From: Candidatus Velthaea sp. | GTDB taxonomy: Bacteria; Vulcanimicrobiota; Vulcanimicrobiia; Vulcanimicrobiales; Vulcanimicrobiaceae | Reading direction: 5' to 3' | NCBI GenBank assembly: GCA_050012475.1 | Contig: JBEKHC010000121.1 | Location: 1 to 25,328, forward strand | DNA: 25,328 nucleotides | Part shown: piece after piece, positions 911-23,659 of the stretch | Layout: each line of letters opens with the position of its first letter | How positions within the stretch are numbered: position 1 is the stretch's first letter | The notes under the pieces: model-generated | Database searches by the model: none | What the model was told of the DNA's origin: nothing | Seen by the model: only the letters and a program-made list of their open reading frames with translations | Made by a program: the position numbers and the translations under genes

Positions 911-2119
911 ATGCGAATGTTGTCCTCACGCGCGCTATGTTTCGTCGCGTGCTTGCTGTTGGGCGCCGCGATGGTGAGAGCTGCATCCGCGCAGCCGTCG
1001 CCGGGAGACCGGTCAGTCCGTGCGGCGATCGATGCGGCCGTGCAAAAGGAGCGTAAGATTTTTGGCGGGCATACGCCGGTTCCCGGCGTGCTCATCGAAG
1101 TCTCGGACAAGACCGGCAACTACGTGCGCACGTATGGTTACGCCGACCTCGCAACGCATCGCAACCTCACCGCCCAAGATTATTTTCGTATCGGCAGTAA
1201 TACGAAGACCTTCGTGATCAGCGTACTCTTACAGCTCGTCGATGAGAAAAAACTCCGCCTTGACGACCCGCTCAGCACGTTTGCGCTGGGTGTGGACATT
1301 CCTAATGCCCAGAACATCACGGTGCGCGAACTGTGCCAAATGCGCAGCGGTCTGTTCGAGGCCTATAATACGCCCGAAATTGCCAAAATGAACATTACCG
1401 GAAAGTCGACGTTTGATGCCCGGACGCTGGTAGGATGGGCCGTGCATCAAAAGCTGCTTTTCGCACCCGGCACGAAATACAACTACAGCAATACGAACTA
1501 TTTGATCCTCGGCCTCATCATCGAAGCCATAACGAAAGATACGGTCGCGCACGAAATCGAAGATCGTCTGCTGCGGAAATTTGCCCTCAGCCATACGTCG
1601 TATCCGGAAACGCAAGAAATGCCGAATCCTTGGGCCCACGGCTACGGCTTGAACGCGAAGAAAGGGTGGGACGATGTCAGTGGCACGATACCCGTTTCGC
1701 TGATGGGTTCCGCTGGAGAGATGGTCTCCGACATGCAGGACATGACGACCTGGACGAAGCTCTACGTCACCGGTAAAACGAACGGTGCGGCGACTCAAAA
1801 AGAGCGGCTGGATTGCATCTACACGGGAAAAGGCAACAACTACTTCGGTTTGGGGATCGGGTGCAGCGCCGGGTACTTCGGCTATACCGGCGGGCTCCCG
1901 GGCTACAACACGGCGAACTTCTACGAGCCGTCCACCGGAACGTTCATCCTCGCGTGGGTGACCGTGCAAAACGATACGCCCGCACCGGGCGTTGCGAATG
2001 CGATCGCTCGCGAGATCGCTCGTATCTTAACCCCGGATCACGTTCCGTTCTTGGTCACCGCCGAGGCGGCGAACACGCGACCCCACCGGCAACCGGCCCG
2101 CTTCGTGCACGGCAGGTAG
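911..2119 (+). CDS. Secreted serine hydrolase, beta-lactamase/D-Ala-D-Ala carboxypeptidase (AmpC-like) family
   Basis: FRIGSNTK (SxxK), YNYSNTNY (YxN), GYTGGLPGY; hydrophobic signal peptide ending ASA. Start set at ATG 911 after GAGG (ORF track begins at 890). Confidence 0.9.
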   Translation: MRMLSSRALCFVACLLLGAAMVRAASAQPSPGDRSVRAAIDAAVQKERKIFGGHTPVPGVLIEVSDKTGNYVRTYGYADLATHRNLTAQDYFRIGSNTKTFVISVLLQLVDEKKLRLDDPLSTFALGVDIPNAQNITVRELCQMRSGLFEAYNTPEIAKMNITGKSTFDARTLVGWAVHQKLLFAPGTKYNYSNTNYLILGLIIEAITKDTVAHEIEDRLLRKFALSHTSYPETQEMPNPWAHGYGLNAKKGWDDVSGTIPVSLMGSAGEMVSDMQDMTTWTKLYVTGKTNGAATQKERLDCIYTGKGNNYFGLGIGCSAGYFGYTGGLPGYNTANFYEPSTGTFILAWVTVQNDTPAPGVANAIAREIARILTPDHVPFLVTAEAANTRPHRQPARFVHGR

Positions 2120-2362
2120 GAAGCCGTTTCTGGCGGCACGTCCGCGAAATCGGCACCGACGCCGGCCGGTGCGCGAGAAGCGCTCAGCAGCTGTGCGCTC
2201 GCAAGCGGCCAGGGGTTCGGACCGACGCCGGCGTCGCCGAGTTTCACGGCGGCCGGACGCTTCTGTCCATCAGGTGTGTTTTGGCGTGGGCCGGGCTGGG
2301 CAATGCGTTGTCGGACCAGCCGGTTAATCCGCTGGCATGCAGGACGATGAGGGAGTTGGACG

Positions 2363-2605
2363 ATGCTTGATGATGACGTTTCCGACAGTGGAGCAGAGGG
2401 TAAGGCCGACGGCGGCGCGAGTGGGATCGCGGGTGTGCATGACGGCGGTGCGGACGGGGGAGCTGAGGGTCCAGCCGACGGCGGCGCATCGGGAAAGCCC
2501 GGCGTGCATGACGGTGGGGCGGACGGCGGTGCCGAAGGTCCAGCCGACGGCGGCGCGTCGGGAAAGCCCGGCACGCATGACGGTGGTGCGGACGGCGGCG
2601 CCTGA
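2363..2605 (+). CDS. 80-aa Asp/Gly-rich tandem-repeat peptide (DGGA repeats); putative substrate/precursor of the adjacent JmjC oxygenase
   Basis: GGGAG RBS 7 nt before ATG; MLDDDVSDSGA + 3 x EGxADGGASGxxGxHDGGADGGA; units 2 and 3 differ at four synonymous positions and one codon (V/T), indicating protein-level selection in this frame. Confidence 0.85.
   Translation: MLDDDVSDSGAEGKADGGASGIAGVHDGGADGGAEGPADGGASGKPGVHDGGADGGAEGPADGGASGKPGTHDGGADGGA
2396..2602 (+). repeat. Three imperfect 69-bp tandem coding repeats (2396-2464, 2465-2533, 2534-2602)
   Basis: Units align by eye without gaps, e.g. gccgacggcggcgc...gcatgacgg.gg.gcggacgg. Confidence 0.95.
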
Positions 2606-2621
2606 CGTCAAGCCGGAGTCG

Positions 2622-2665
2622 CGCGCGGGCAGGCGGCCGTTGCGGCTTTCCCGCGCGTAACTTTT
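2622..2665 (+). terminator. GC-rich stem-loop after the peptide gene (leaky terminator or mRNA-stabilising hairpin)
   Basis: CGCGCGGG (2622-2629) pairs with CCCGCGCG (2650-2657); inner GCCG-ttg-CGGC stem; followed by TAACTTTT. Confidence 0.6.
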
Positions 2666-2714
2666 GCGGCGAGCAGCGCACTCCCGCGAACTCGAAGTTG
2701 GGAGTGATGAGCAG

Positions 2715-3926
2715 GTGACGGCCGATCCTTTACTGCGAGCCACCGGGCTCTCGGTGAGCGAGTTCGCAGCATCGCACTGGGGGAGCGTTCCGCTGCTTCG
2801 TCGACACTCCGAACTCCCCGGCGAGGGTTTTGCCGACTTGCTTACGCTCGCCGCGGTCGATGAGCTGCTGTCGCGACGCGGGCTGCGCACGCCGTTCGTG
2901 CGCATGACGCGGGACGGCAACGTCTTGCCGCCGCGCCGGTTCACGCGCGGCGGCGGGGCCGGCGCGGACATCGCCGATCAAGTCGCCGACGATTTGGTCC
3001 TAAGCGAGTTCGCTGCGGGCGCGACGCTCGTGTTGCAAGGTTTGCACCGCCTGTGGCCGCCGGTACAGGAATTCGCGGTTGCGCTCTCGTCGCAGCTCGG
3101 GCATCCCGTGCAAATCAACGCCTACATCACCCCGCCGCAGAATACGGGCTTCGCTGCGCACTACGATGTCCATGACGTCTTCGTGCTTCAGTTTGCCGGC
3201 ACCAAGCGTTGGCGCATCCACCAACCCGTTTGGCCGGCGCCGCTCCGCGACCAGCCGTGGGACATGCACAAGACGGCCGTCGCTGCACGTGCCGCCGAGA
3301 TACCGCTTCTGGAGAGCGTGCTCGAGTGCGGCGACGCGCTCTACTTGCCGCGCGGCTATATTCACGCGGCCTCGTCGCTGGGTGAGGTTTCCGGACACCT
3401 CACCGTCGGAGTGCACGCCGTAACGCGTCACACGCTGGCAACGCAAGTGTTCGCGGCGCTTTCCGACGACGTCGAGCTGCGCCGGTCATTGCCGGTCGGC
3501 GTCGACTTGTCGGATGCCGACGTCCTTTCCGAAGAACTCGAAGCGACGGTTGCCGCGCTGCGGAGCGCGATCGACCGCCTCGATCGCGGCGCCGTCGCGC
3601 GGGGCGTGGGCAAGCATCTCGCCGAAACCACGCGTCCCGCGCCGCTCCGTCCGCTCGAACAGTTGTCGGCGGCCGCGACGCTGTCTCCCAAAACGCAGTT
3701 GCGCTTGCGCCCGGGACTGCGCCTGACGCTGCGACCCGACGGCGAGCAGCTTGCGATCGAGTTGGCCGATAAAGACGTTCGGGTGCCCGCCGCAGCGGCC
3801 GAAGCCGCGCGTGCTGCAACGTCGGGGATCGCCGTGACCGCCGAGAGCCTGCCGGGCATCGATGTCGCCGCAGCTTTGACCATGCTTCGACAATTGCTCC
3901 GTGACGGGATTCTCGTGCCGGTATGA
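2715..3926 (+). CDS. JmjC/cupin_4 Fe(II)/2-oxoglutarate oxygenase, ROXA(YcfD)/NO66-like
   Basis: GATLVLQGLH, NAYITPP, GFAAHYDVHDVFVLQFAGTKRW (HxD, 2OG Lys), GDALYLPRGYIH (distal His); C-terminal winged-helix-like segment. Start uncertain: GTG 2715 after GGGAG vs TTG 2664. Confidence 0.9.
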   Translation: MTADPLLRATGLSVSEFAASHWGSVPLLRRHSELPGEGFADLLTLAAVDELLSRRGLRTPFVRMTRDGNVLPPRRFTRGGGAGADIADQVADDLVLSEFAAGATLVLQGLHRLWPPVQEFAVALSSQLGHPVQINAYITPPQNTGFAAHYDVHDVFVLQFAGTKRWRIHQPVWPAPLRDQPWDMHKTAVAARAAEIPLLESVLECGDALYLPRGYIHAASSLGEVSGHLTVGVHAVTRHTLATQVFAALSDDVELRRSLPVGVDLSDADVLSEELEATVAALRSAIDRLDRGAVARGVGKHLAETTRPAPLRPLEQLSAAATLSPKTQLRLRPGLRLTLRPDGEQLAIELADKDVRVPAAAAEAARAATSGIAVTAESLPGIDVAAALTMLRQLLRDGILVPV

Positions 3927-3948
3927 TGGTCGCTGAAGCAGGCATCAG

Positions 3949-4872
3949 CTGACCGCGCGCGGCTATCGCTGCGCTGTCCATGCCGAATTGCGCGGCGATT
4001 CCATGCTCGGCACGGCATCGCCGCACGCGCGAGTCTTGCTCGTGCACCAACCGGGGGCGTGGGGGCCGCGCGGTTTGGTCGAGAGCCGATGCGATCCGGA
4101 CGTTGCACGTCGAATCGACCGTGCCGCTGCCGACGCGGGGATGCGCCTACAGGCGATCCGCCGGCCCGGGAAACACGAAGTCGGCCAACCGGCCGGCGGC
4201 TATCTCGTGGGCATCGCTGATACGCGCGGCGAGCCTCCGGCGATCGTGTGGTGGCGCACCGACAGCTTGGCAGATATCGCCGCGGAACTGGCCGGAGGAT
4301 TCCCCCGCCGGCCGCCGGCCGAGATCGACACGGCTCCGATGTATCTCGTGTGTGCTCACGGGCGTCACGACGCGTGCTGTGCGTTGCGCGGCCGCCCCCT
4401 CGCGCAAGCCTTGCAGGTCGCGCGGCCAGGCCGGGTTTGGGAGACGACGCATTTGGGCGGTGATCGCTTTGCGGCAAACCTCCTGGTCTTGCCGACAGGT
4501 GAGCTGTACGGGCGGGTAACGCCGGACGTTGCCGCCGAGTTTGCCGATCGCGTCGACGCAGGCGAAGTGGTGCCCGGACTCATGCGTGGACGCATCGGCC
4601 TTGCACCGATCGCGCAGGCTGCGCTGATCTACGCGCACGACCAACTCGGAATCGTGGCTCGCGATGCGTTATCGGTACGCTCGGTTCACCGTGTCGATGC
4701 CCAGCGCGCGCATGCAAACGTCGTTACCCCGCGGGGCCTGATCGTAGTGACGGTCGGCATCGAAACGAGCGCGGCTGCGCAGTTGACCTGTCGCGGACCC
4801 CAGGGGGCGCGGGCACGCGAATACCGCGGACTCGCAATTACGGAAGTTGACACCGACAGCGTCCTATCATAG
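3949..4872 (+). CDS. Sucrase/ferredoxin-like (thioredoxin-like [2Fe-2S], Apd1/Aim32-related) protein
   Basis: LVCAHGRHDACCALRGRP, WETTHLGGDRFAANLLVLPTGELYGR, C-terminal LTC; frame open upstream of TTG 3988 through GYRCAVHAELRGDSMLGTA to a possible CTG start at 3949. Confidence 0.88.
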   Translation: MTARGYRCAVHAELRGDSMLGTASPHARVLLVHQPGAWGPRGLVESRCDPDVARRIDRAAADAGMRLQAIRRPGKHEVGQPAGGYLVGIADTRGEPPAIVWWRTDSLADIAAELAGGFPRRPPAEIDTAPMYLVCAHGRHDACCALRGRPLAQALQVARPGRVWETTHLGGDRFAANLLVLPTGELYGRVTPDVAAEFADRVDAGEVVPGLMRGRIGLAPIAQAALIYAHDQLGIVARDALSVRSVHRVDAQRAHANVVTPRGLIVVTVGIETSAAAQLTCRGPQGARAREYRGLAITEVDTDSVLS

Positions 4873-5250
4873 CTTGGGTTCGATGCGTTCGCTTTCGCTA
4901 TAGATTTCTATCGGGTAGCCGTCCGGATCGTGGACGCGGCCGACGTACACGGGGCCGCGTTGAACCGGTGCCTCCACGATCGGCACATTCTCTGCGCGAA
5001 AATGCTCGAACCAGGCATCGACGTCCGCAGCGCTGTCGACGCGGAAGCCGAAGTGAAAGCCTCCGCCGATGTGCGGCGTCCCTTGTGCGAGGACGAGCAG
5101 AAACGTGGGCGTGTGAATGCGAATCGTCGTTTCGGTACGTACGGCGGGCAAGGCGAAGACGTCGCGATAAAAGCGTTCGCTTGCGGCGAGGGAGGCGACA
5201 TCGAGATTGAGGTGCGTAACGGAGCGCGCGGCGAGTGATTCCGGGGCCAT
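4867..5250 (-). CDS. VOC/glyoxalase family protein
   Basis: THLNLDVASLAASERFYRDVF, FHFGFRV, DPDGYPIEI. Confidence 0.9.
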   Translation of the reverse strand: MAPESLAARSVTHLNLDVASLAASERFYRDVFALPAVRTETTIRIHTPTFLLVLAQGTPHIGGGFHFGFRVDSAADVDAWFEHFRAENVPIVEAPVQRGPVYVGRVHDPDGYPIEIYSESERIEPKL

Positions 5251-10992: not shown

Positions 10993-11439
10993 ATGATTCA
11001 TCGCATTACACCCTTCTTATGGTTTGATGGGAACGCAGAAGCCGCCGCGCGTTTCTACACGTCGGTCTTCCCGGACGCGTCGCTGGATAGCGTGAGCCCG
11101 ATGTCGGTTACCTTCACGCTGCACGGTCAACAATTTTACGGGCTCAACGGCGGACCCGAATACAAGCATTCGCCCGCGGTCTCGTTCTTCGTCAGCGTCG
11201 ATACGCAGGAGGAGGTCGACGCGCTCTGGTCGGCCCTGATCGCGGATGGCGGCGAACCCGGACGCTGCGGCTGGCTCGTCGATAAATTCGGCCTGTCCTG
11301 GCAGATTATTCCGGTCGCGCTCGGCGAGCTGATGAACGACGACGACGACGAGAAGGCCGATCGCGTGATCGAAGCAATGCAGCAGATGAACAAGATCGAA
11401 ATCGCGGGCTTGCGCCGCGCGTACGACGGTGTGTCATGA
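10993..11439 (+). CDS. PhnB-like / 3-demethylubiquinone-9 3-methyltransferase-like VOC protein
   Basis: ITPFLWFDGNAEAAARFY, LNGGP, CGWLVDKFGLSWQIIP, MQQMNKIEI; GGAG at 10977-10980. Confidence 0.92.
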   Translation: MIHRITPFLWFDGNAEAAARFYTSVFPDASLDSVSPMSVTFTLHGQQFYGLNGGPEYKHSPAVSFFVSVDTQEEVDALWSALIADGGEPGRCGWLVDKFGLSWQIIPVALGELMNDDDDEKADRVIEAMQQMNKIEIAGLRRAYDGVS

Positions 11440-11831
11440 AATATATTCTGATGATGAACACGATGACGGCGGATTCCAAGCCCTTCGGGGATTGGGCTCA
11501 GGACGACATCAAGACCCACATTGCCTACATGATCGGTCTCAACAAAGAGCTGAGCGCACGCGGAGAGTTGGTGGGGGCGGAGGGGCTGGCCTTTCCCGAA
11601 CAAGCAAGGCTCGTTCGGGCAGGGAAAAACGGCGAGCCGATCACCGACGGCATCTTCCCCGAGTCCAAGGAGTTTCTCGCGGGATTTTGGATCGTCGACG
11701 TCGAGACGCCCGAGCGTGCTTACGCGATCGCTGCGCGCGCGTCGGCAGCGCCCGGATCCGGCGGTGCACCGCTCAACATGGGCATCGAAGTGCGACCCGT
11801 AATGAGCGGGCCGCCGGCCGACCTCGTCTGA
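11436..11831 (+). CDS. YciI/DGPF-domain protein
   Basis: MKYILMM...GELVGAEGL...ITDGIFPESKEFLAGFWIVDV...IEVRPVM; ATGA overlap with upstream stop. Confidence 0.92.
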   Translation: MKYILMMNTMTADSKPFGDWAQDDIKTHIAYMIGLNKELSARGELVGAEGLAFPEQARLVRAGKNGEPITDGIFPESKEFLAGFWIVDVETPERAYAIAARASAAPGSGGAPLNMGIEVRPVMSGPPADLV

Positions 11832-11842
11832 GCGCCTCACGT

Positions 11843-13145
11843 TTGGACGCCGAAGTCGAGTCGATTCTGCGCGAGCTCGCGCCGCGCGTGCTGGGCTCCG
11901 TCGCGCGGCACTGCCACGACTTCGGCGCTGCCGAAGACGCCGTCCAGGAGGCGCTGCTCGCCGCTGCCGGCCAATGGCCGCGCGACGGCGTGCCGTCCAG
12001 TCCGCGCGCGTGGTTGATCCACGTCGCGTCGCGCCGGCTCACCGACCATCAGCGCAGCGAGGCCGCTCGACGCCGGCGAGAGTTTGCGGAGGTTGCGCAC
12101 TTCGGCTATCTCGCGCCGGCTCCCGAGCGCGATGAGCCGACCGAGGAGGACGACACGCTCGTCCTGCTCTTCATGTGCGCGCATCCTGCACTCACGCCGT
12201 CGTCGGCGATCGCCCTGACGCTGCGAGCCGTTGGGGGCTTGACGACGGCCGAGATTGCCGGCGCCTTTCTCGTTCCCGAAGCAACGATGGCGCAACGGAT
12301 CAGCCGAGCGAAGCGGAACATCAAATCCTCGGGGTTGGGATTTCGTCTGCCGACGATCGACGAGCGGGCGCAACGCTTGCGTGCCGTCTTGCACGTCCTC
12401 TATCTCATCTTCAACGAAGGGTATGCCAGCAGCGCCGGTCCGCAACTGCAGCGTATCGAGCTTTCGCGCGAGGCCATCCGTTTGACGCGTGTTGCACATG
12501 CATCGCTGCCCGAGAATCCGGAAGTCGCGGGACTCTTGGCGCTCATGCTCCTTACCGATGCCCGGCGGCTTGCACGCACGGGTCCTGCCGGGGAGCTGAT
12601 CCCGTTGACCGAACAGAATCGTGCTGTATGGGATGCAGCCCAGATCGCGGAAGGCGTCGCGCTCATTGCCGCCGCGCTCGCAAAAGGTTCGGCCGGTCCC
12701 TACCAGGTGCAGGCCGCCATCGCCGCAGTCCACGATGAAGCGTTGCGGGTGGAGGATACGGACTGGCCGCAGATCCTTGCGCTCTACGAAGTGCTCGAGG
12801 GCATGTCGCAAAATCCGATCGTTGCCCTCAATCGCGCCGTTGCCGCGGCCATGGTCCATGGTCCGGAACATGGTCTCACGCTCTTGCAAGCGCTTGACGC
12901 CGATCCGCGCGTCGCCGGCCACTATCGAGTCGAATCACCTTGCCGCCACGCGCACGGCGAGTATGCCGGAACGAATGTACCTTGCGACTCGGGCCGCGCG
13001 GTTAAACGCAAACGCGCCTTGTCCCGTATCCGATATTTCGCTCGTGCATCCGCCTTCCGGGTCGATCGCAAAGGAAGTCCGCGCTGGATGGACAGTGTTT
13101 TCGTCGAGCCGGGGGCAAGAGGACATCCGGGAGTTACCTCGCTGA
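11843..13145 (+). pseudogene. ECF42-type sigma factor (sigma2/sigma4 + DUF6596/TPR extension) with deletion/frameshift near 12935
   Basis: AEDAVQEALL, LLFMCAHPAL, GGLTTAEIA..FLVPEATMAQRISRAK, LYLIFNEGY, PYQVQAAIAAVH, TDWPQILALY; after GHYRVE the family-like tail AATRTASMPERMYLATRAARL (to ~13004) is in another frame. Start TTG 11843 or CTG 11828. Confidence 0.85.
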
Positions 13146-13242
13146 ACGACGTTGCCGGTCGTTCAAAGGCTCGCCAACACGTGATCGAGCTCCCTTGCTT
13201 CGCAAGGTGCTCGATGAATTTGCCGCCGAAGCAACGCCCCGA

Positions 13243-13479
13243 ATGAGAGATCGTCGTCGGTCCGACGCAACGAACGTTGGCGTCAGCGTCCTTTTCGAGA
13301 CGCTGTGGAAAGATTACCATTGCGGCCCGATAACGGTTTCTACCGATGGCAGTGGCGTGACCCTGCGGTTCGATACTCACACGTTCGAGGACTATTCTCT
13401 CGAAGCTGCCCTCGTCAAAACGGTGGATCATCTCGCCCGGCTCGAGCGATCCGACGAGGAGCCCAGCGGCGCGGACTAG
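13243..13479 (+). CDS. Small hypothetical protein
   Basis: 78-aa ORF with protein-like composition (VSVLFETLWKDYHCGPITV...LEAALVKTVDHLARL); no family recognised. Confidence 0.5.
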   Translation: MRDRRRSDATNVGVSVLFETLWKDYHCGPITVSTDGSGVTLRFDTHTFEDYSLEAALVKTVDHLARLERSDEEPSGAD

Positions 13480-19629: not shown

Positions 19630-20283
19630 ATGAGCATCGATGCCGGACAGCTCAAGATGATCTTAGCGGAACTCGCGGCAACGATCGCGTCGCACGCGAC
19701 CGAATTGGGCGAACTGGACCGGGCGATCGGCGACGGCGACCATGGCATCAACCTGTCCCGCGGCTTCGGTGCGGTCGCCGAGCACCTCGATGAGATCGCA
19801 TTTCTCCCCCCGGACAAAGCGTTGATCGAGGTGGGAAAGCGTTTGGTGATGACCGTCGGAGGAGCTTCGGGGCCGCTCTACGGGACATTCTTCATGTCGC
19901 TGGGCAAGGCGCTCGGCGGCTCCGAGCCGGTCACGCGCGAACGGCTGTTTGCAGCGTTGGATGCAGCCGTCGCTGCGGTGAAGGCCCGCGGTAAATCCGA
20001 GGTCGGGCAGAAGACCCTGCTCGACGTGCTGATTCCCGTTCAGACCGAATTGCACGCCGGCGACGCCGACCTCGTCCGTCGCCTGCGGGCTCGGGCGCAA
20101 GCCGCAGCGGCGGCAACGATTCCGATGCGCGCGCAGCGCGGGCGGGCGGCGTTCTTGGGCGAGCGCAGCATCGGACACCTCGATCCCGGAGCGCGCTCGA
20201 GTCAACTGCTGATCGATGCGGTGTGCGATGCGCTGTCGCGCGACGCTGCAGCAGCCGCCGCGGAACCGCACCGTGCCGAGTGA
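19630..20283 (+). CDS. dhaL: Dihydroxyacetone kinase ADP-binding subunit L
   Basis: LDRAIGDGDHGINL, VGGASGPLYGT, GQKTLLDVL, RGRAAFLGERSIGHLDPGARS; GGGAGAGG RBS. Confidence 0.95.
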   Translation: MSIDAGQLKMILAELAATIASHATELGELDRAIGDGDHGINLSRGFGAVAEHLDEIAFLPPDKALIEVGKRLVMTVGGASGPLYGTFFMSLGKALGGSEPVTRERLFAALDAAVAAVKARGKSEVGQKTLLDVLIPVQTELHAGDADLVRRLRARAQAAAAATIPMRAQRGRAAFLGERSIGHLDPGARSSQLLIDAVCDALSRDAAAAAAEPHRAE

Positions 20284-20674
20284 TTTGGCAAACGTGGGGA
20301 TCGTGATCGTTTCGCACTCGCCGGACGTCGCGCGCGGCGCAGCCGATATGGTTCGGCAAATGGTGGGATCGGACGTCCCGCTGGCCTGGTGCGGCGGCGA
20401 TCCGGCCGGCGGTTTGGGGACCAGCGTAGCGGCAATAACCGCGGCGATCGATGCCGCTTGGTCCGAGCGCGGCGTCGCCGTGCTGGTCGATTTGGGCGGA
20501 GCGGAGACGAACGCCGAGATGGCGATCGAACAGCTGCCCGCGGACCGGCAGTCCCGGGTCGCGATCTGCGCGGCGCCGATCGTCGAAGGCGCCGTCGTGG
20601 CCGCAACCGAGGCCGGCGGCGGCTCGTCACTGGCGGACGTCCGCCGTGCCGCAGAGGAGTTTTATGCACGCTGA
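20273..20674 (+). CDS. dhaM: DHA kinase phosphotransferase subunit M (EIIA-Man-like)
   Basis: VGIVIVSHS, GGLGTS, LVDLGGAETNAEMA, APIVEGAVVAA; start GTG 20273 or TTG 20285. Confidence 0.92.
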   Translation: MPSDLANVGIVIVSHSPDVARGAADMVRQMVGSDVPLAWCGGDPAGGLGTSVAAITAAIDAAWSERGVAVLVDLGGAETNAEMAIEQLPADRQSRVAICAAPIVEGAVVAATEAGGGSSLADVRRAAEEFYAR

Positions 20675-21017
20675 CGGTGAGTCCCGAGGGGCGGATCGGG
20701 CGGCGCCGCTGCGCGCGAGCGGGTCGGCCGTGCTCGCTCATGTCAATGGTCTTCATGCCCGTCCGGCGATCAAGTTGACGCGGCTCGCGAAGCGCTTCAG
20801 CGCGAACATTCGGGTCGCGGCAACGGCCGGTGGGCCATGGACGGATCTCAAGAGTATCGTCAAAGTCATGGCCATGAAAACGCCCAGCGGAGCGACGCTC
20901 TATTTTGAGTCCGAAGGCGACGATGCGCGCGCTGCCGTTGACGCGCTCATCGCGCTCGTCGAGCGGGATTTCGTGACGGGCGAAGACGACGATGCGGCCG
21001 CGGCCCGGCAGGGATGA
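20664..21017 (+). CDS. ptsH: HPr family phosphocarrier protein
   Basis: GLHARPA, DLKSIVKVM, EGDDARAAVDAL; GAGGAG RBS before ATG 20664. Confidence 0.9.
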   Translation: MHADGESRGADRAAPLRASGSAVLAHVNGLHARPAIKLTRLAKRFSANIRVAATAGGPWTDLKSIVKVMAMKTPSGATLYFESEGDDARAAVDALIALVERDFVTGEDDDAAAARQG

Positions 21018-21024
21018 CACCGCG

Positions 21025-22662
21025 ATGACGAGCGAGACGCGGTCGCTGCACGGTACGCCCGCGGCTCCCGGCCTGGCACGCGGGCCAGTCTACGTTCTCG
21101 ATGCGTTCGAAGAGGCACCGGTGGCGGGGACGACGCCGCGAACGCCGGCGCGAACCGCTGCGGGCGAAACGCGTTCGCTGCGTGAAGCGCTGTCGCGCGC
21201 TTGCGCGGAGTTGACCAGGCTGCAAAGCACGGCCGCCGACGCCGACGCGCGGGCAATCTTAGAGTTTCAGCTTGCGATGCTCGAAGACGAATCGTTAGCG
21301 GAACCGGCGTTTGAAGCCATCGACCGCGGCGTCCCGGTCAACGGCGCGTGGCTTACGACGCTTGACGCCCAAATCGCCGATTACGAGGACTCGGCCGACG
21401 AATATTTTCGCGCGCGCGCCTCCGATTTGCGCGACATTCGCGACCGCGTCGCGCGCGCGTTGACGGGCACGGTGCTCGCGGCGATCCCGGCGGGGTCCAT
21501 CGTCGTCGCCGCCGACCTGTTACCCTCGCACTTCTTGGAAATCCGCTGGGAGGGCGGCGGCATCGCGCTCTTCGAGGGCAGTTCGAGTTCGCATTTGGCG
21601 ACGCTTGCACGCGCTCGAGGCGTTCCGATGATCGTGCAGATGGCTCGTGCGGCGTTCGCACCGAACGACGAGGCGCTGTTGGATGCGGATGCGGGGCTGC
21701 TGATTGCAGCACCCGACGAAGAAGCGGTGCGGCTCTTCGACGAACGCTTTGGGACCGCGCAGCGAACCGCGGCAACCGAACAGACGTTTCTGACCGCGCC
21801 CGCGGCGACGGCGAACGGCGAGCGCGTGCAGGTGCTGCTCAACGTTGCGCAGCGTTCCGAGCTCGACGCGATCTCTCCCGCGCACTGCGACGGGATCGGA
21901 GTGGTACGCACCGAGCTCATGCTGGACAGCCTCGCGGACCTGCGCGACGAGGAGCGGCAATACCTCGCGTATCGCGAGATCGTCGATTGGGCGCAGGGCA
22001 AACCCGTGACCTTTCGGACGCTGGACGCGGGCGGCGACAAACCGATCGAAGGATACACGCTGCCGGATGAGTCGAACCCCTATCTCGGCGTGCGCGGTGT
22101 GCGGCTCTCGCTGCTCCATCCGGAGATTGCGACGGTGCAGTTGCGCGCGTTCGCTCGTGTCGCGGTGCTCGGCCCGGTGAAAATCATGGTCCCGATGGTT
22201 ACGCGACCCAGCGAGATGGATCGCATGCGCGAATTGCTGACGGCGGCTGTCCGGGCGTTGCGTGCTGACGGCGCGGCGTGCGCCTTGCCCGAGCTGGGCA
22301 TGATGGTCGAAGTGCCGGCCGCCGCGCTCACCCTCGATTTGTTCGCAGCCGACTTCCTCTCGATCGGCTCGAACGATTTGATTGCGTATCTGACGGCGTG
22401 CGGACGCGACAGCGACCGCCTCGCAGCGCTCGCGGATCCGCTGGCGCCCGCCGTGCTGCGGACGCTCGAAATGATCGTGCGGGCGGCACGTGCGCGAACC
22501 ATCGACGTAAGTTTATGCGGTGATATGGCCAGCGATGAACGCTATCTTCGGCCTTTGCTCGAGACGGGCTTGCGCAGCTTTTCCGTTGCGCCGGCCGCGC
22601 TCGCGCGGGTGAAGGCGACGATTTCGACCGTCGGAGAGCTGCCCGCGCCGCTGCCGGCGTAA
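21025..22662 (+). CDS. ptsI: PEP-protein phosphotransferase (PTS Enzyme I)
   Basis: RARASDLRDI, SSHLATLARARGVP (phospho-His), GIGVVRTE, RTLDAGGDK, ESNPYLGVRG, GMMVEVP, SIGSNDL, SLCGDMA. Confidence 0.93.
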   Translation: MTSETRSLHGTPAAPGLARGPVYVLDAFEEAPVAGTTPRTPARTAAGETRSLREALSRACAELTRLQSTAADADARAILEFQLAMLEDESLAEPAFEAIDRGVPVNGAWLTTLDAQIADYEDSADEYFRARASDLRDIRDRVARALTGTVLAAIPAGSIVVAADLLPSHFLEIRWEGGGIALFEGSSSSHLATLARARGVPMIVQMARAAFAPNDEALLDADAGLLIAAPDEEAVRLFDERFGTAQRTAATEQTFLTAPAATANGERVQVLLNVAQRSELDAISPAHCDGIGVVRTELMLDSLADLRDEERQYLAYREIVDWAQGKPVTFRTLDAGGDKPIEGYTLPDESNPYLGVRGVRLSLLHPEIATVQLRAFARVAVLGPVKIMVPMVTRPSEMDRMRELLTAAVRALRADGAACALPELGMMVEVPAAALTLDLFAADFLSIGSNDLIAYLTACGRDSDRLAALADPLAPAVLRTLEMIVRAARARTIDVSLCGDMASDERYLRPLLETGLRSFSVAPAALARVKATISTVGELPAPLPA

Positions 22663-22675
22663 AAGGAGCAAGACG

Positions 22676-23659
22676 ATGAAGAAGTTTATGAACGGCGTGG
22701 ATACGATGCTGCACGAAAGCCTCGACGGGTTCGCGCATTGCCATCGCGACATCGTTGCGCTCGATCCGGAATATCGCTTCGTGCGCCGAACGAAGGGCAA
22801 GCCCGGCAAGGTCGCGCTCGTTTCAGGCGGCGGCAGCGGGCACGAACCGCTGCACCTCGGATTCGTCGGCACTGGGATGCTCGACGCGGCCTGTCCCGGA
22901 CAGATCTTCACGTCGCCGACGCCCGACCAGATGGTTGCGGCGGCAGAAGCGGTCGACACCGGCGCCGGCGTGCTGTTCATCGTAAAAAACTACGAAGGCG
23001 ATACGATGAATTTCGCGATGGCGGCCGAGCTGCTGGACGACCGGGCGGCGACGCTCATCACGGACGATGATGTGGCGGTCGAGAAGTCGAGTTTCAGCAT
23101 CGGTCGCCGCGGCGTGGCGGGGACGCTCGTCGTCGAGAAAGTCGTCGGCGCTGCAGCGGAGCGCGGCGACGACCTCGCTGCGTTGCGAACGTTGGGCGAG
23201 CTGGTCAACGCTGCGACCCGAACGATGGGCGTGGCTCTCACCAGCTGCACGGTTCCGGCTGCCGGCAAGCCGACGTTCGAGCTAGGTGACGACGAGATGG
23301 AGATGGGCGTCGGCATTCACGGCGAGCCCGGACGGCGCCGCACGGCGCTCAAATCCGCCGACACGATCGCCGCGGAGATCGTCGCGGCGATCGCCGGCGA
23401 TCTCGGCGTACTGGCGCGTGGACCGGTGCTGCTGCTCGTCAACGGTTTCGGCGGCACACCGCTATCCGAACTTTATTTGATGTACAATTCGGCGCGGCAG
23501 CAACTCGAGCAGCGCGGCCTGGAAGTTGGGCGCGGGCTCGTCGGTTCGTTCGTGACGTCGCTCGAAATGGCCGGTTGTTCGATCACCGTCACGGTTTTGG
23601 ACGATACGCTCATCCAACTCTGGGACGCCCCGGTGCACACTGCCGCATTACGCTGGTAA
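22676..23659 (+). CDS. dhaK: Dihydroxyacetone kinase DHA-binding subunit K
   Basis: VSGGGSGHEP, GQIFTSPTP, VKNYEGD, GRRGVAG, GVGIHGEPG, TSLEMAGCS; AAGGAG RBS. Confidence 0.96.
   Translation: MKKFMNGVDTMLHESLDGFAHCHRDIVALDPEYRFVRRTKGKPGKVALVSGGGSGHEPLHLGFVGTGMLDAACPGQIFTSPTPDQMVAAAEAVDTGAGVLFIVKNYEGDTMNFAMAAELLDDRAATLITDDDVAVEKSSFSIGRRGVAGTLVVEKVVGAAAERGDDLAALRTLGELVNAATRTMGVALTSCTVPAAGKPTFELGDDEMEMGVGIHGEPGRRRTALKSADTIAAEIVAAIAGDLGVLARGPVLLLVNGFGGTPLSELYLMYNSARQQLEQRGLEVGRGLVGSFVTSLEMAGCSITVTVLDDTLIQLWDAPVHTAALRW

Follow-up and report, generated by a model that had tools for sequence, protein, structure and literature searches.

What does a bacterial JmjC oxygenase modify when its gene directly follows that of a small, strongly acidic repeat peptide? 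The ROX enzymes known so far modify basic ribosomal proteins whose genes lie elsewhere, and, to our knowledge, ribosomal proteins are the single established substrate class of bacterial ROX-type JmjC oxygenases. The window—that is, the whole 25,328-nucleotide stretch of Candidatus Velthaea sp. DNA analysed here—carries a gene for such an enzyme between a peptide gene and a gene for a sucrase-ferredoxin-like (Suc_Fer) protein (Table 1). A preliminary description of this DNA had proposed a RiPP-like system of three co-oriented, closely packed genes, and all of its elements were recovered on one strand. The peptide has, in our estimate, about an even chance of being the dedicated substrate of the oxygenase, hydroxylated repeatedly and probably on Asp.

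Table 1. Positions of the cassette features in the window
Feature	Position	Strand	Details
Acidic repeat peptide gene	2363..2605	+	80 aa; ORF, repeats, homologues
Tandem repeat inside the peptide gene	2390..2598	+	69 bp, 3.0 copies, in frame, 23 codons per unit
GC-rich hairpin in the peptide-JmjC spacer	2606..2671	+	Core stem CGCGCGGG/CCCGCGCG at ~2621-2658, then AACTTTT
ROX-type JmjC Fe(II)/2-oxoglutarate oxygenase	2664..3926	+	PF08007 (JmjC_2); start TTG 2664 or GTG 2715
Suc_Fer-like protein	3988..4872	+	PF06999; start TTG 3988 or ATG 4003

The peptide gene and its flanks

The peptide opens with MLDDDVSDSGA, where MLDDDVSDS represents a variant form of the LNDDD[IM]xT motif of the family, and continues with three 23-aa units of the form EG[KP]ADGGASGxxGxHDGGADGGA, the stop codon following immediately on the last repeat. 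The acidic N-terminus, the three repeats, and the nine DGGA motifs noted earlier are all present; the computed net charge is −13. Tandem Repeats Finder returned a period of 69 for the gene, with 3.0 copies, 83% matches, and a score of 250, and a Shine-Dalgarno-like GAGGGAG lies 7 nt 5′ of the ATG.

A tandem repeat of 69 bp in a GC-rich region with every frame open might be non-coding, and six of six frames are open over positions 2300-2680. Furthermore, no Pfam or NCBIfam model matches the window peptide or eight family peptides, and NCBIfam holds no family for any of the three window proteins. In a genome of the same genus (G002), the peptide, JmjC, and Suc_Fer genes are all present in an order identical to that of the window; the two peptide genes differ at 4, 7, and 29 sites in codon positions 1, 2, and 3, respectively, with 28 synonymous and 6 non-synonymous codons. 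One antisense frame scored 25 synonymous and 9 non-synonymous codons, nearly equal to the sense frame, so that the codon-substitution test alone does not settle the strand of the gene. Support for the sense frame comes from 66 protein homologues found by homology search, with start and N-terminal motif conserved, and from an AGGAGG located 5-7 nt 5′ of the ATG and invariant in all 16 Streptomyces loci aligned. Many genera keep the start, the N-terminal motif, the repeat unit, and the stop, at a DNA divergence too high for non-coding conservation, and the excess of third-position changes is met again among population variants in metagenome contigs (three of four). This metagenome comparison, which covered four DNA runs as contigs only and informs on repeat form and variant sites, found the three-repeat gene free of indels in contigs of three studies. 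On this sequence evidence, the small ORF is a genuine gene rather than a frame left open by chance in GC-rich DNA, and a non-coding repeat is extremely improbable.

As for the hairpin that had been placed between precursor and enzyme, the stem exists, with TTTT after it, but the fold energy of positions 2603-2716 (MFE −53.9 kcal/mol, z −1.28) does not go beyond that of shuffled sequences, 21 of 200 of which fold as well, and a terminator scan gave 2 sites against 2.4 expected, including one terminator-like site at 2641-2655. The spacer hairpin is thus confirmed only in part as a feature; it may be an attenuator, though neither test gives this statistical support. A scan with consensus motifs of IdeR/DtxR, Zur, and Rex operators showed no enrichment over the 400 nt that precede the DGGA loci, and this region therefore lends no support to a metal- or redox-regulated role. 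A PF00144 serine hydrolase is encoded 5′ of the cassette (890-2119) and is not conserved in G002.

The oxygenase and the ferredoxin-like protein

GTG 2715 is the likelier start of the JmjC gene, because it is preceded by GGGAG and agrees with the starts of homologues; the protein then has 403 aa. It matches PF08007 with 88.5 bits (gathering cutoff 22, E 3.3e-25), as well as PF13621, and the HxD...H site described earlier is intact: the triad H149-x-D151...H217 and K164 (numbering from 2715) are kept. In a 54-sequence alignment, H149, H217, and K164 are invariant, D151 is found in ≥90%, and an HxT motif (H228/T230) is conserved; K164 is, by analogy, the putative 2OG-binding residue. The predicted model (pLDDT 95.7) comprises a JmjC core, a helical (dimerisation) arm, and a C-terminal winged-helix-like domain. 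Foldseek placed NO66 first (E 6e-28, TMq 0.71-0.74 across 455-466 columns), followed by MINA53 and YcfD, with 4ccn, 4y33, and 4e4h as the best structures (E ~1e-27) and FIH, also of the JmjC fold, among the distant matches (2cgo, E 5e-9); identity to solved ROX enzymes is only 18-24%. The enzyme looks active, with catalytic triad and 2OG Lys conserved and a full ROX architecture predicted. Prediction of a complex of JmjC and peptide, both given as alignments, scored 0.01, a value that speaks neither for nor against an interaction.

The third protein of the cassette had been described as a thioredoxin-like [2Fe-2S] protein, and both its PF06999 match (68.2 bits, cutoff 34.9, E 1e-18) and its fold agree. 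In its model (pLDDT 93.1), the thioredoxin-like [2Fe-2S] ferredoxin domain (~residues 109-202) is flanked by an N-terminal domain and by a C-terminal alpha+beta domain that carries an invariant Cys. VIA aligned 94 residues to the Aquifex ferredoxin 1f37 (Z 12.3, rmsd 2.7) and gave Z 11.6 to Azotobacter FeSI (5abr); for the C-terminal domain, it returned generic cystatin/NTF2-like matches only (Z ≤ 8.9). Foldseek found no match to the whole model at E ≤ 0.001, the best being weak (E 0.03). C117, C125, C126, H150, D154, and C263 are invariant in 35 Suc_Fer sequences, and C117-x8-C126...H150-x3-D154 are the putative cluster ligands. The protein shares the thioredoxin-like ferredoxin fold, the CX8C pair, and the PF06999 match with yeast Apd1/Aim32, Aquifex Fd4, and Azotobacter FeSI, but differs from known Suc_Fer-like ferredoxins in its extra N- and C-terminal domains, its invariant C-terminal Cys, and JmjC as its genetic partner. 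It also lacks the canonical HX3H: the second pair is HX3D, its Asp invariant in the 35 sequences, whereas the accessible text on Aim32/Apd1-type proteins gives CX8C...HX3H as the canonical ligand motif, with HX3H in Aim32 (PMC8482512).

Linkage, distribution, and rival roles of the enzyme

The pair of peptide and JmjC genes occurs in many soil bacteria. Linkage was examined in 80 public loci with the peptide motif (the DGGA loci), drawn from 14 or more genera of Actinobacteria. A JmjC homologue is encoded directly 3′ of the peptide gene on the same strand in 79 of the 80, and the remaining locus ends at a contig edge; the peptide-JmjC pairing is almost obligatory. Suc_Fer is next in 45 loci and missing in 35, including all those of Micromonosporaceae and Rhodococcus. 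Thus, Suc_Fer does follow, as had been supposed, but as an accessory of the DGGA branch, a frequent but dispensable partner. Absence of the peptide gene beside close JmjC homologues, which had been named as an argument against the system, did not occur: nine of the ten closest homologues in a 401-genome Actinomycetota sample have the peptide, and an HMM of the DGGA peptide matched nine genomes of that sample, each match directly 5′ of one of the ten best JmjC matches.

A wider set comprised 60 further JmjC loci with 31-48% identity. With a detector for leader plus acidity, a small acidic same-strand ORF, differing from the DGGA peptide, was found 5′ of JmjC in 49 of them; the detector fires just three times elsewhere in 487 kb of strand-bases, an enrichment of ~150-fold. 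Seven of its 11 misses are near-variants by eye and two lack upstream DNA, bringing the by-eye count to 56 of the 58 loci having upstream DNA; L088 and L146 have no recognisable peptide of this kind. The peptides of the further loci combine a leader-like L-x-D-[DE]-[DE]-I motif with DGTD-type repeats, and Suc_Fer follows JmjC in 51 of the 60 loci. A quick IQ-TREE tree groups the enzymes partnered with DGGA peptides in a single clade (SH-aLRT 99) and separates them from the partners of DGTD-type peptides. The DGGA system belongs to a much larger family, in which it forms one branch beside others whose acidic repeat cores differ.

That pairing of JmjC with Suc_Fer, conserved in both locus sets, would also suit an unmodified peptide: a disordered acidic protein for cation binding or stress that merely shares a transcript with a JmjC-Suc_Fer pair directed at a different small molecule or protein. 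Family members have between 2 and 7 repeats, a variability that many disordered proteins show, and DxDG-like acidic runs and the His/Asp/Ser runs of L127 appear to resemble metal-binding sequences. However, the peptide-JmjC linkage is tighter than that of JmjC with Suc_Fer and persists without Suc_Fer in Micromonosporaceae, and known ROX-type JmjC enzymes, the group to which the fold match points, act on proteins rather than on small molecules. An unmodified peptide is accordingly considered improbable.

The distribution of the JmjC clade is patchy. It was found in 74 of the 401 sampled Actinomycetota genomes (a tally that takes in three unpublished genomes, G313, G133, and G093) and in 2 of 41 relatives of the window. 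JmjC homologues of ~30% identity in the relatives L003-L007 belong to another subfamily; tblastn with the window peptide and Suc_Fer gave no match in any of these five, and a full reading of L003 revealed no such peptide or Suc_Fer near its JmjC. The window's copy looks horizontally acquired from Actinomycetota. The closest named homologues for the window lineage come from Candidatus Eremiobacteraeota assemblies, and the copy would document transfer of the cassette into that lineage.

Distribution bears on a more conventional role, in which the enzyme hydroxylates a ribosomal or other cellular protein, as YcfD, NO66, and MINA53 do, and the peptide serves as a regulator, inhibitor, decoy, or acidic chaperone or adaptor for a basic substrate. 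These three are the best structural matches, the three-domain architecture is complete, and automatic source annotations of the homologues read NO66 or L16 Arg81 hydroxylase; each of five carrier genomes checked has a single ROX homologue, namely the cassette JmjC. The nearest solved relatives act on ribosomal proteins, an observation that counts against the peptide as substrate. Nor is the enzyme basic: its pI is mildly acidic (median 5.8, window copy 6.1), which rules out overall charge complementarity to the peptide. The accessible part of Iyer et al. (2010; PMC2938197) lists the HxT motif, present here, for bacterial versions near eukaryotic MINA/NO66. Yet presence in so few genomes and relatives of the window is unexpected for a housekeeping modifier, as is travel between phyla as a cassette; identity to solved ROX enzymes is low; and the peptide core changes with the JmjC clade, as one would sooner expect of an enzyme and its substrate than of a generic adaptor. 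The genomic context points to a substrate other than a ribosomal protein, and we regard the conventional role as unlikely.

The peptide as candidate substrate

The L-x-D-[DE]-[DE]-[IM] motif is present at the N-terminus of 36 of the 80 DGGA peptides and of 49 of the 60 others, and the acidic cores vary. The remaining 44 DGGA peptides, of Streptomyces type, start with MTNPEQDPNQ and have no leader-like motif, so that recognition cannot depend on this motif everywhere. Either Asp or His had been suggested as the modified residue. Hydroxylation of the His in each HDGG unit would match NO66 and MINA53, which modify ribosomal His, and the nearest solved structures are those of protein histidyl and arginyl hydroxylases; the window peptide has one His per repeat in a Gly-rich context, and His is the commonest residue at this position across the family. 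The closest actinobacterial cassette, L075 (Marmoricola), has Gln instead of this His in each of its three repeats; His is also replaced by Gln or Ser in P0004, L049, and L071, by Glu or Arg in L011, and by Arg or Gln in terminal repeats of Micromonosporaceae, and most DGTD-type cores have no His at all. Therefore, this His cannot be the general target, and His hydroxylation as the function of the system is distinctly improbable; of the two suggested residues, Asp is the likelier.

For Asp, we infer a two- to three-gene operon that would encode a repeat peptide, made by the ribosome, intrinsically disordered, and strongly acidic, together with an enzyme dedicated to its modification. This enzyme, the ROX-type JmjC encoded directly 3′, would recognise the peptide, possibly via the L-x-D-[DE]-[DE]-[IM]-x-T motif where one is present, and would hydroxylate the repeated core several times. 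The likeliest site would be C-beta of Asp in the A-D-G motif, since Asp is the sole residue common to all core types. Suc_Fer may keep the iron of the oxygenase reduced or couple its activity to the redox state. The product is probably full-length and intracellular, given that no leader protease or exporter is linked, and the poly-hydroxy-aspartyl peptide may bind metal cations.

The window cassette was confirmed to contain no peptidase, exporter, or signal peptide, and no protease, exporter, or immunity gene was found linked by window search and neighbourhood clustering. Within 6 kb on each side, no other conserved neighbour family occurs in more than five genera, the clustering being noisy, as ORFs taken from stop to stop run several frames together when the DNA is GC-rich. 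The cassette therefore shares with RiPP systems a short precursor gene adjoining a co-oriented modifying enzyme gene (79 of 80 DGGA loci and, with the strict detector, 49 of 60 others), but not a leader peptidase or exporter. The absence of linked protease, exporter, and immunity genes is atypical for RiPPs and counts against the peptide as a modified substrate.

FIH β-hydroxylates Asp and Asn on ankyrin repeats, and known ROX enzymes share with the cassette JmjC the JmjC_2 Pfam family, the HxD...H triad, the 2OG Lys, and the three-domain architecture (NO66/RIOX1, MINA53/RIOX2, and YcfD/RoxA); the cassette enzymes differ from the latter in being patchy and mobile-looking, with an acidic repeat peptide gene 5′ and usually Suc_Fer 3′. 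According to the accessible text of its description, SmaO, an unrelated Fe/2OG enzyme, forms β-hydroxy-Asp in a RiPP (PMC12186529). FIH and SmaO resemble the cassette in the chemistry, which for the cassette peptide is only proposed, but belong to other subfamilies and have substrates with single sites, as against 9 or more repeated sites in the peptide. Similar in gene arrangement, as far as the accessible texts describe them, are BipG of biphenomycin, a JmjC hydroxylating ornithine (PMC12707348), and CzlI of curacozole, a JmjC hydroxylating Phe (PMC11575548), each a JmjC-type Fe/2OG enzyme encoded beside a short RiPP precursor gene. In those texts, both act as tailoring enzymes within large clusters that also encode cyclases, proteases, and transporters, and the closest structure given for CzlI is YxbC, not NO66, which by description sets the cassette JmjC apart. 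In the cassette, JmjC is the sole enzyme besides the Fe-S protein, the precursor is long, acidic, and multi-repeat, and no protease or exporter is linked.

The name "BatC protein," mentioned in the preliminary description, is indeed borne by relatives, on some family members and ESM Atlas clusters, and in Actinobacteria these relatives do have cupin and sucrase-ferredoxin genes as neighbours. BatC proper is a TPR-repeat protein of the batA-E operon. The eight family peptides contain no Pfam or NCBIfam domain and their neighbours are JmjC and Suc_Fer, not bat genes; a true BatC was accordingly rejected, and the name carries no functional information for this family. The accessible literature on BatC concerns Bacteroidetes or Leptospira bat operons, fungal aminotransferases, and unrelated acronyms. 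JmjC enzymes in RiPP pathways are already known from BipG and CzlI; this peptide-JmjC family was not found described, the literature search yielding no description of these peptides or of a JmjC-Suc_Fer link, although the association may be mentioned beyond the scope of that search, in the supplementary lists of bacterial neighbourhoods of MINA/NO66-like enzymes by Iyer et al. (2010; PMC2938197).

In its widest form, the proposal is of a new, widespread class of ribosomal peptides. Acidic multi-repeat precursors with a shared N-terminal motif and DGGA, DGTD, DADA, or other cores would be converted into poly-β-hydroxy-aspartyl peptides by dedicated NO66-like JmjC enzymes, with a specialised Cys/Cys/His/Asp [2Fe-2S] ferredoxin serving as their redox partner; left uncleaved inside the cell, the product would chelate or buffer metals, or else it would be a signalling peptide that responds to oxygen, iron, or 2OG, and the clade would be the bacterial lineage closest to eukaryotic NO66/MINA53. 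Taken as a whole, this is tentative, its chances well short of even.

About one in five sampled Actinomycetota genomes (74/401) holds a ROX-like enzyme whose gene is tied to that of a hypervariable acidic repeat peptide, which offers a concrete candidate substrate for it, and the hosts of the family include Streptomyces, Micromonospora, and Salinispora, which are in culture and amenable to genetics. Should hydroxylation of the peptide be the case, the system would represent a large RiPP-like family encoded by a minimal set of genes; thioredoxin-like ferredoxins would have a new use, as partners of an oxygenase, and metal ligands of the poly-hydroxy-acid type might be reached by a ribosomal route. 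If, moreover, the clade is the closest bacterial lineage to NO66/MINA53, ROX enzymes would have begun as peptide-specific modifiers.

The peptide, JmjC and Suc_Fer genes

The preliminary description placed genes for an acidic repeat peptide, a JmjC oxygenase and a Suc_Fer protein (a PF06999-type thioredoxin-like [2Fe-2S] protein) in one cassette, a layout that the ORFs and Pfam matches confirmed and that is extended here to a family. The three ORFs have little space between them and share one strand, and NCBIfam holds no model for any of their proteins. The peptide begins with MLDDDVSDSGA, followed by three units of EG[KP]ADGGASGxxGxHDGGADGGA with nine DGGA motifs in total, and the stop codon lies immediately behind the final unit; at the DNA level, Tandem Repeats Finder reported a 69-bp period with 3.0 copies and 83% matches. 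The remainder of the window is a mixture of metabolic and regulatory genes. Neither the window genes nor neighborhood clustering of the family loci revealed a protease or exporter linked to the cassette. With regard to the ECF-type ORF listed in the table, its initial 140 residues have no match, and its listed start may therefore be too far upstream.

Features of the cassette, its flanks and two other regions of the window
Feature	Position	Strand	Assignment
ORF 1, peptide	2363-2605	+	80 aa; three 23-aa units
ORF 2, JmjC	2664-3926	+	PF08007 JmjC_2 (E 3e-25) and PF13621
ORF 3, Suc_Fer	3988-4872	+	PF06999 Suc_Fer-like (E 1e-18)
Serine hydrolase	upstream flank of cassette	same as cassette	PF00144; unrelated gene
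Glyoxalase, ABM monooxygenase, alpha/beta hydrolase	downstream flank of cassette	opposite to cassette	unrelated genes
Long ORF	11429-13246	+	ECF-type sigma-70 regions 2 and 4 plus DUF6596
Dihydroxyacetone kinase-type cluster	19630-23659	+	all one direction; Dak2 domain, PTS EIIA-man-like, PEP-utilising enzyme I-like and Dak1 domain proteins

Since all six frames are open at the small ORF, its open frame by itself proves nothing. The same three genes occur in the same order in a same-genus relative (G002), whose 86-aa peptide ends in the same repeats. Over 70 alignable codons, the two peptide genes differ at 4, 7, and 29 sites in codon positions 1, 2, and 3, respectively, and of the differing codons 28 are synonymous and 6 non-synonymous; since the corresponding figures for one antisense frame are 25 and 9, the codon test alone cannot fix the strand. 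Strand and gene status were settled by the wider peptide family, in which 66 protein homologues have an architecture in common. Furthermore, AGGAGG is found 5-7 nt ahead of the ATG in all 16 aligned Streptomyces loci, and the three-repeat form was found again, indel-free, in metagenome contigs from three studies, with three of the four variant sites in the peptide gene falling at third codon positions. Overall, conservation at the sequence level indicates that the small ORF is a real gene. A hairpin reported earlier in the spacer between the peptide and JmjC genes does exist as a structure, but folds no better than shuffled sequences (z -1.28), and a terminator scan stayed at chance level.

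Several variants were also observed. A 72-aa version of the window peptide (P0001), encoded on a 218,670-nt contig, is identical as far as the middle of the third repeat and then continues in another reading frame to a basic C-terminus, which would be explained either by a true frameshift or by misassembly within the repeat. In Streptomyces sp. WAC8241 (L051:5821-7074), a peptide frame with seven repeats runs into the N-terminal region of JmjC, and the JmjC match continues, split, in another frame. Possible explanations are a frameshift, a fusion, or a sequencing error. Upstream of the peptide, at a distance of about 100-60 nt from the ATG, a block TC[AC]GGTTGC[CT]G...GTGAGCGAGCTTGGTG recurs in 8 of 16 aligned Streptomyces regions (L040, L043, L044, L058, L070, L072, L073, and L083) and may be a promoter or operator. 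No metal or redox operator was found upstream of the DGGA loci.

Linkage and the wider family

The association was counted first from the side of the peptide. A scan for [HQ]DGGADG[GS]A, with one genome per species, confirmed at least 238 loci among 600 candidates, and linkage was determined for the best 80 of these by tblastn with the window proteins as queries. All of the best 80 are from Actinomycetota. A JmjC homologue (43-61% identity) lies directly downstream of the peptide, on the same strand, in 79 of the 80, and in the 80th (L045) the sequence stops 142 bases past the peptide match. A Suc_Fer homologue directly behind JmjC was detected in 45 of these best 80, including loci of Streptomyces, Nocardioides, Cellulomonas, Marmoricola, Brevibacterium, and Curtobacterium, among others, and in none of the Micromonosporaceae or Rhodococcus loci among them; Suc_Fer is a frequent accessory of the peptide-JmjC pair. 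Cultured organisms with a homologue of the peptide include Streptomyces albidoflavus and Micromonospora. Across the same best 80 of at least 238 loci, the peptides contain two to seven repeats and have one of two N-terminal types, M-x-L[ND]DDD[IM]-x-T (36/80) or the Streptomyces type MTNPEQDPNQ (44/80).

Counted from the enzyme, JmjC proteins of the window clade were detected at E <= 1e-20 in 74 of 401 genomes drawn evenly across Actinomycetota, a tally that is the only one to include three genomes flagged unpublished (G313, G133, and G093). A peptide HMM matched in nine of the 401, and in each the match lay immediately ahead of a JmjC gene ranking among the 10 best. Thus, nine of these 10 JmjC homologues do have a peptide gene upstream, and the converse outcome raised in the preliminary description, that close homologues usually lack it, was not observed. 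Sixty of the remaining JmjC loci were then analyzed, leaving aside G313, G133, G093, G335, G439, and G340. Suc_Fer lies directly behind JmjC in 51 of these; of the other nine, two end soon after JmjC (38 and 243 bases to the contig end) and seven have no Suc_Fer within 1.6-2.8 kb of downstream DNA. Unexpectedly, 49 of the 60 contain a different small ORF just upstream on the same strand, with a conserved N-terminal motif (e.g., LTDEDIxT, LSDEDI, VEDEDI, or LRDDDI) followed by strongly acidic repeats (e.g., DADGTD, DGDATD, DTTDTD, or DADA[AS]D). The detector used, which required the N-terminal motif and at least 20% Asp+Glu, matched 0.95 times per kb upstream of JmjC versus 0.006 per kb elsewhere, with only three matches elsewhere in the 60 loci. 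Its 11 misses comprise two loci without upstream DNA, seven near-variants (LDDEDI, ISNDDI, LTDGDI, VVDEDI, LHDDDM, LTEADI, plus a copy with an apparent frameshift), and two true exceptions, namely a degenerate acidic ORF (L088) and a locus with no such ORF (L146).

Given these acidic ORFs and Suc_Fer genes, the DGGA cassette of the window belongs, as a single branch, to a larger family whose members combine a leader-like motif with a variable core of acidic repeats, JmjC, and usually Suc_Fer. A quick, unrooted IQ-TREE run placed the enzymes linked to DGGA peptides in a single clade (SH-aLRT 99), apart from those linked to DGTD-type cores. Further core types behind a similar N-terminal motif were seen upstream of JmjC at five loci (L099, L100, L119, L127, and L130), including DADA[AS]DADA runs, a His/Asp/Ser run (HDSHDSHDS...), GDAAGAGAG repeats, and a doubled GPTEDDENLDAPGEHSQDTGDE core with no Suc_Fer downstream.

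As for the window's copy, a comparison with 41 genomes related to that of the window found the cassette only in G000 and G002. Four other relatives encode JmjC proteins of about 30% identity, the outgroup of the tree; the whole L003 locus, one of these distant JmjC loci, has no peptide of this kind nearby, and the window peptide and Suc_Fer gave no tblastn match in any of L003-L007. JmjC has at least 5,838 homologues; among the named ones, MAG proteins of Candidatus Eremiobacteraeota come nearest (71-76% identity), ahead of those of Actinomycetota (59-64%). In the quick tree, the window and G002 enzymes fall inside the DGGA clade of Actinomycetota, with Marmoricola as sister (SH-aLRT 99), and the GC content of the cassette (window 2001-5000) is 0.67-0.69 versus 0.56-0.62 in the flanks. 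Tree position and GC step suggest acquisition from Actinomycetota, with the direction read from the unrooted quick tree, and the whole cassette has likely moved between phyla.

Enzyme, iron-sulfur protein, and candidate modified residue

With residues numbered from GTG 2715, H149, H217, K164, and H228 of JmjC are invariant and D151 and T230 near-invariant in 54 aligned sequences. The confident AlphaFold model (pLDDT 95.7) aligns over its whole length with NO66 (E about 1e-27, TMq 0.71-0.74), followed by MINA53 and YcfD and, more distantly, YxbC, JMJD5, and FIH; a full ROX-type protein hydroxylase fold is thus predicted, at 18-24% identity.

The Suc_Fer model (pLDDT 93.1) contains a central thioredoxin-like [2Fe-2S] ferredoxin domain, matched by VIA to Aquifex 1f37 (Z 12.3) and Azotobacter FeSI (Z 11.6); matches by Foldseek alone were weak. 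C117, C125, C126, H150, D154, and C263 are invariant in the window protein and 35 homologues, and C117, C126, H150, and D154 form a putative ligand motif, CX8C...HX3D. Aim32 is described as having CX8C...HX3H; that is, CX8C occurs in both, whereas the second pair is HX3D here and HX3H in Aim32 (PMC8482512). The subfamily has an invariant HxGGD where an HxGGH-type second ligand pair would be expected; C125 and C126 make up a CC doublet, and an extra alpha+beta domain contains a C-terminal LTC motif whose Cys is invariant. These features suggest unusual cluster ligation.

JmjC enzymes acting on RiPP precursors include the ornithine hydroxylase BipG (PMC12707348) and the Phe hydroxylase CzlI (PMC11575548). 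Also on record are fusions between RRE-like folds and PF08007 domains, together with bacterial homologues in RiPP-like settings, in a statement whose references concern cyanobacterial systems (PMC12710340). A widespread bacterial MINA/No66-like group was described by Iyer et al. (2010; PMC2938197), whose main text names no ferredoxin partner and no small peptides. The literature search found neither the peptide motifs, nor a JmjC-Suc_Fer link, nor an actinobacterial "BatC", which for relatives of the peptide is a database label only.

The peptide and oxygenase very likely constitute a functional pair, and the interpretation in the preliminary description is supported in part. Of the two target residues it named, Asp and His, the latter does not hold as a general target: the closest actinobacterial cassette, that of Marmoricola (L075), has Gln for the His of HDGG in all repeats, other members of the family have Gln, Ser, Arg, or Glu there, and DGTD cores mostly lack this His. 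A point for His is that the closest solved JmjC relatives are His hydroxylases. Every core type contains Asp, often within A-D-G, and no other residue is common to them all. FIH, which has a JmjC fold, is known to hydroxylate Asp at C-beta. The same reaction is known for Fe/2OG enzymes of RiPPs (PMC12186529). Judged from the cores, the modified residue would more likely be Asp than His. With a pI of 6.1 (5.8 as the median of the family), JmjC is mildly acidic, and no charge complementarity between it and the peptide was found. The main rival explanation, in which the ROX enzyme modifies another protein and the peptide is an accessory, appears improbable; hydroxylation of the peptide by JmjC is the best explanation, at roughly even odds. 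A new RiPP-like class is less likely than not but a serious possibility, and the system is classed here as a JmjC hydroxylase of peptides or proteins together with its cognate small peptide.
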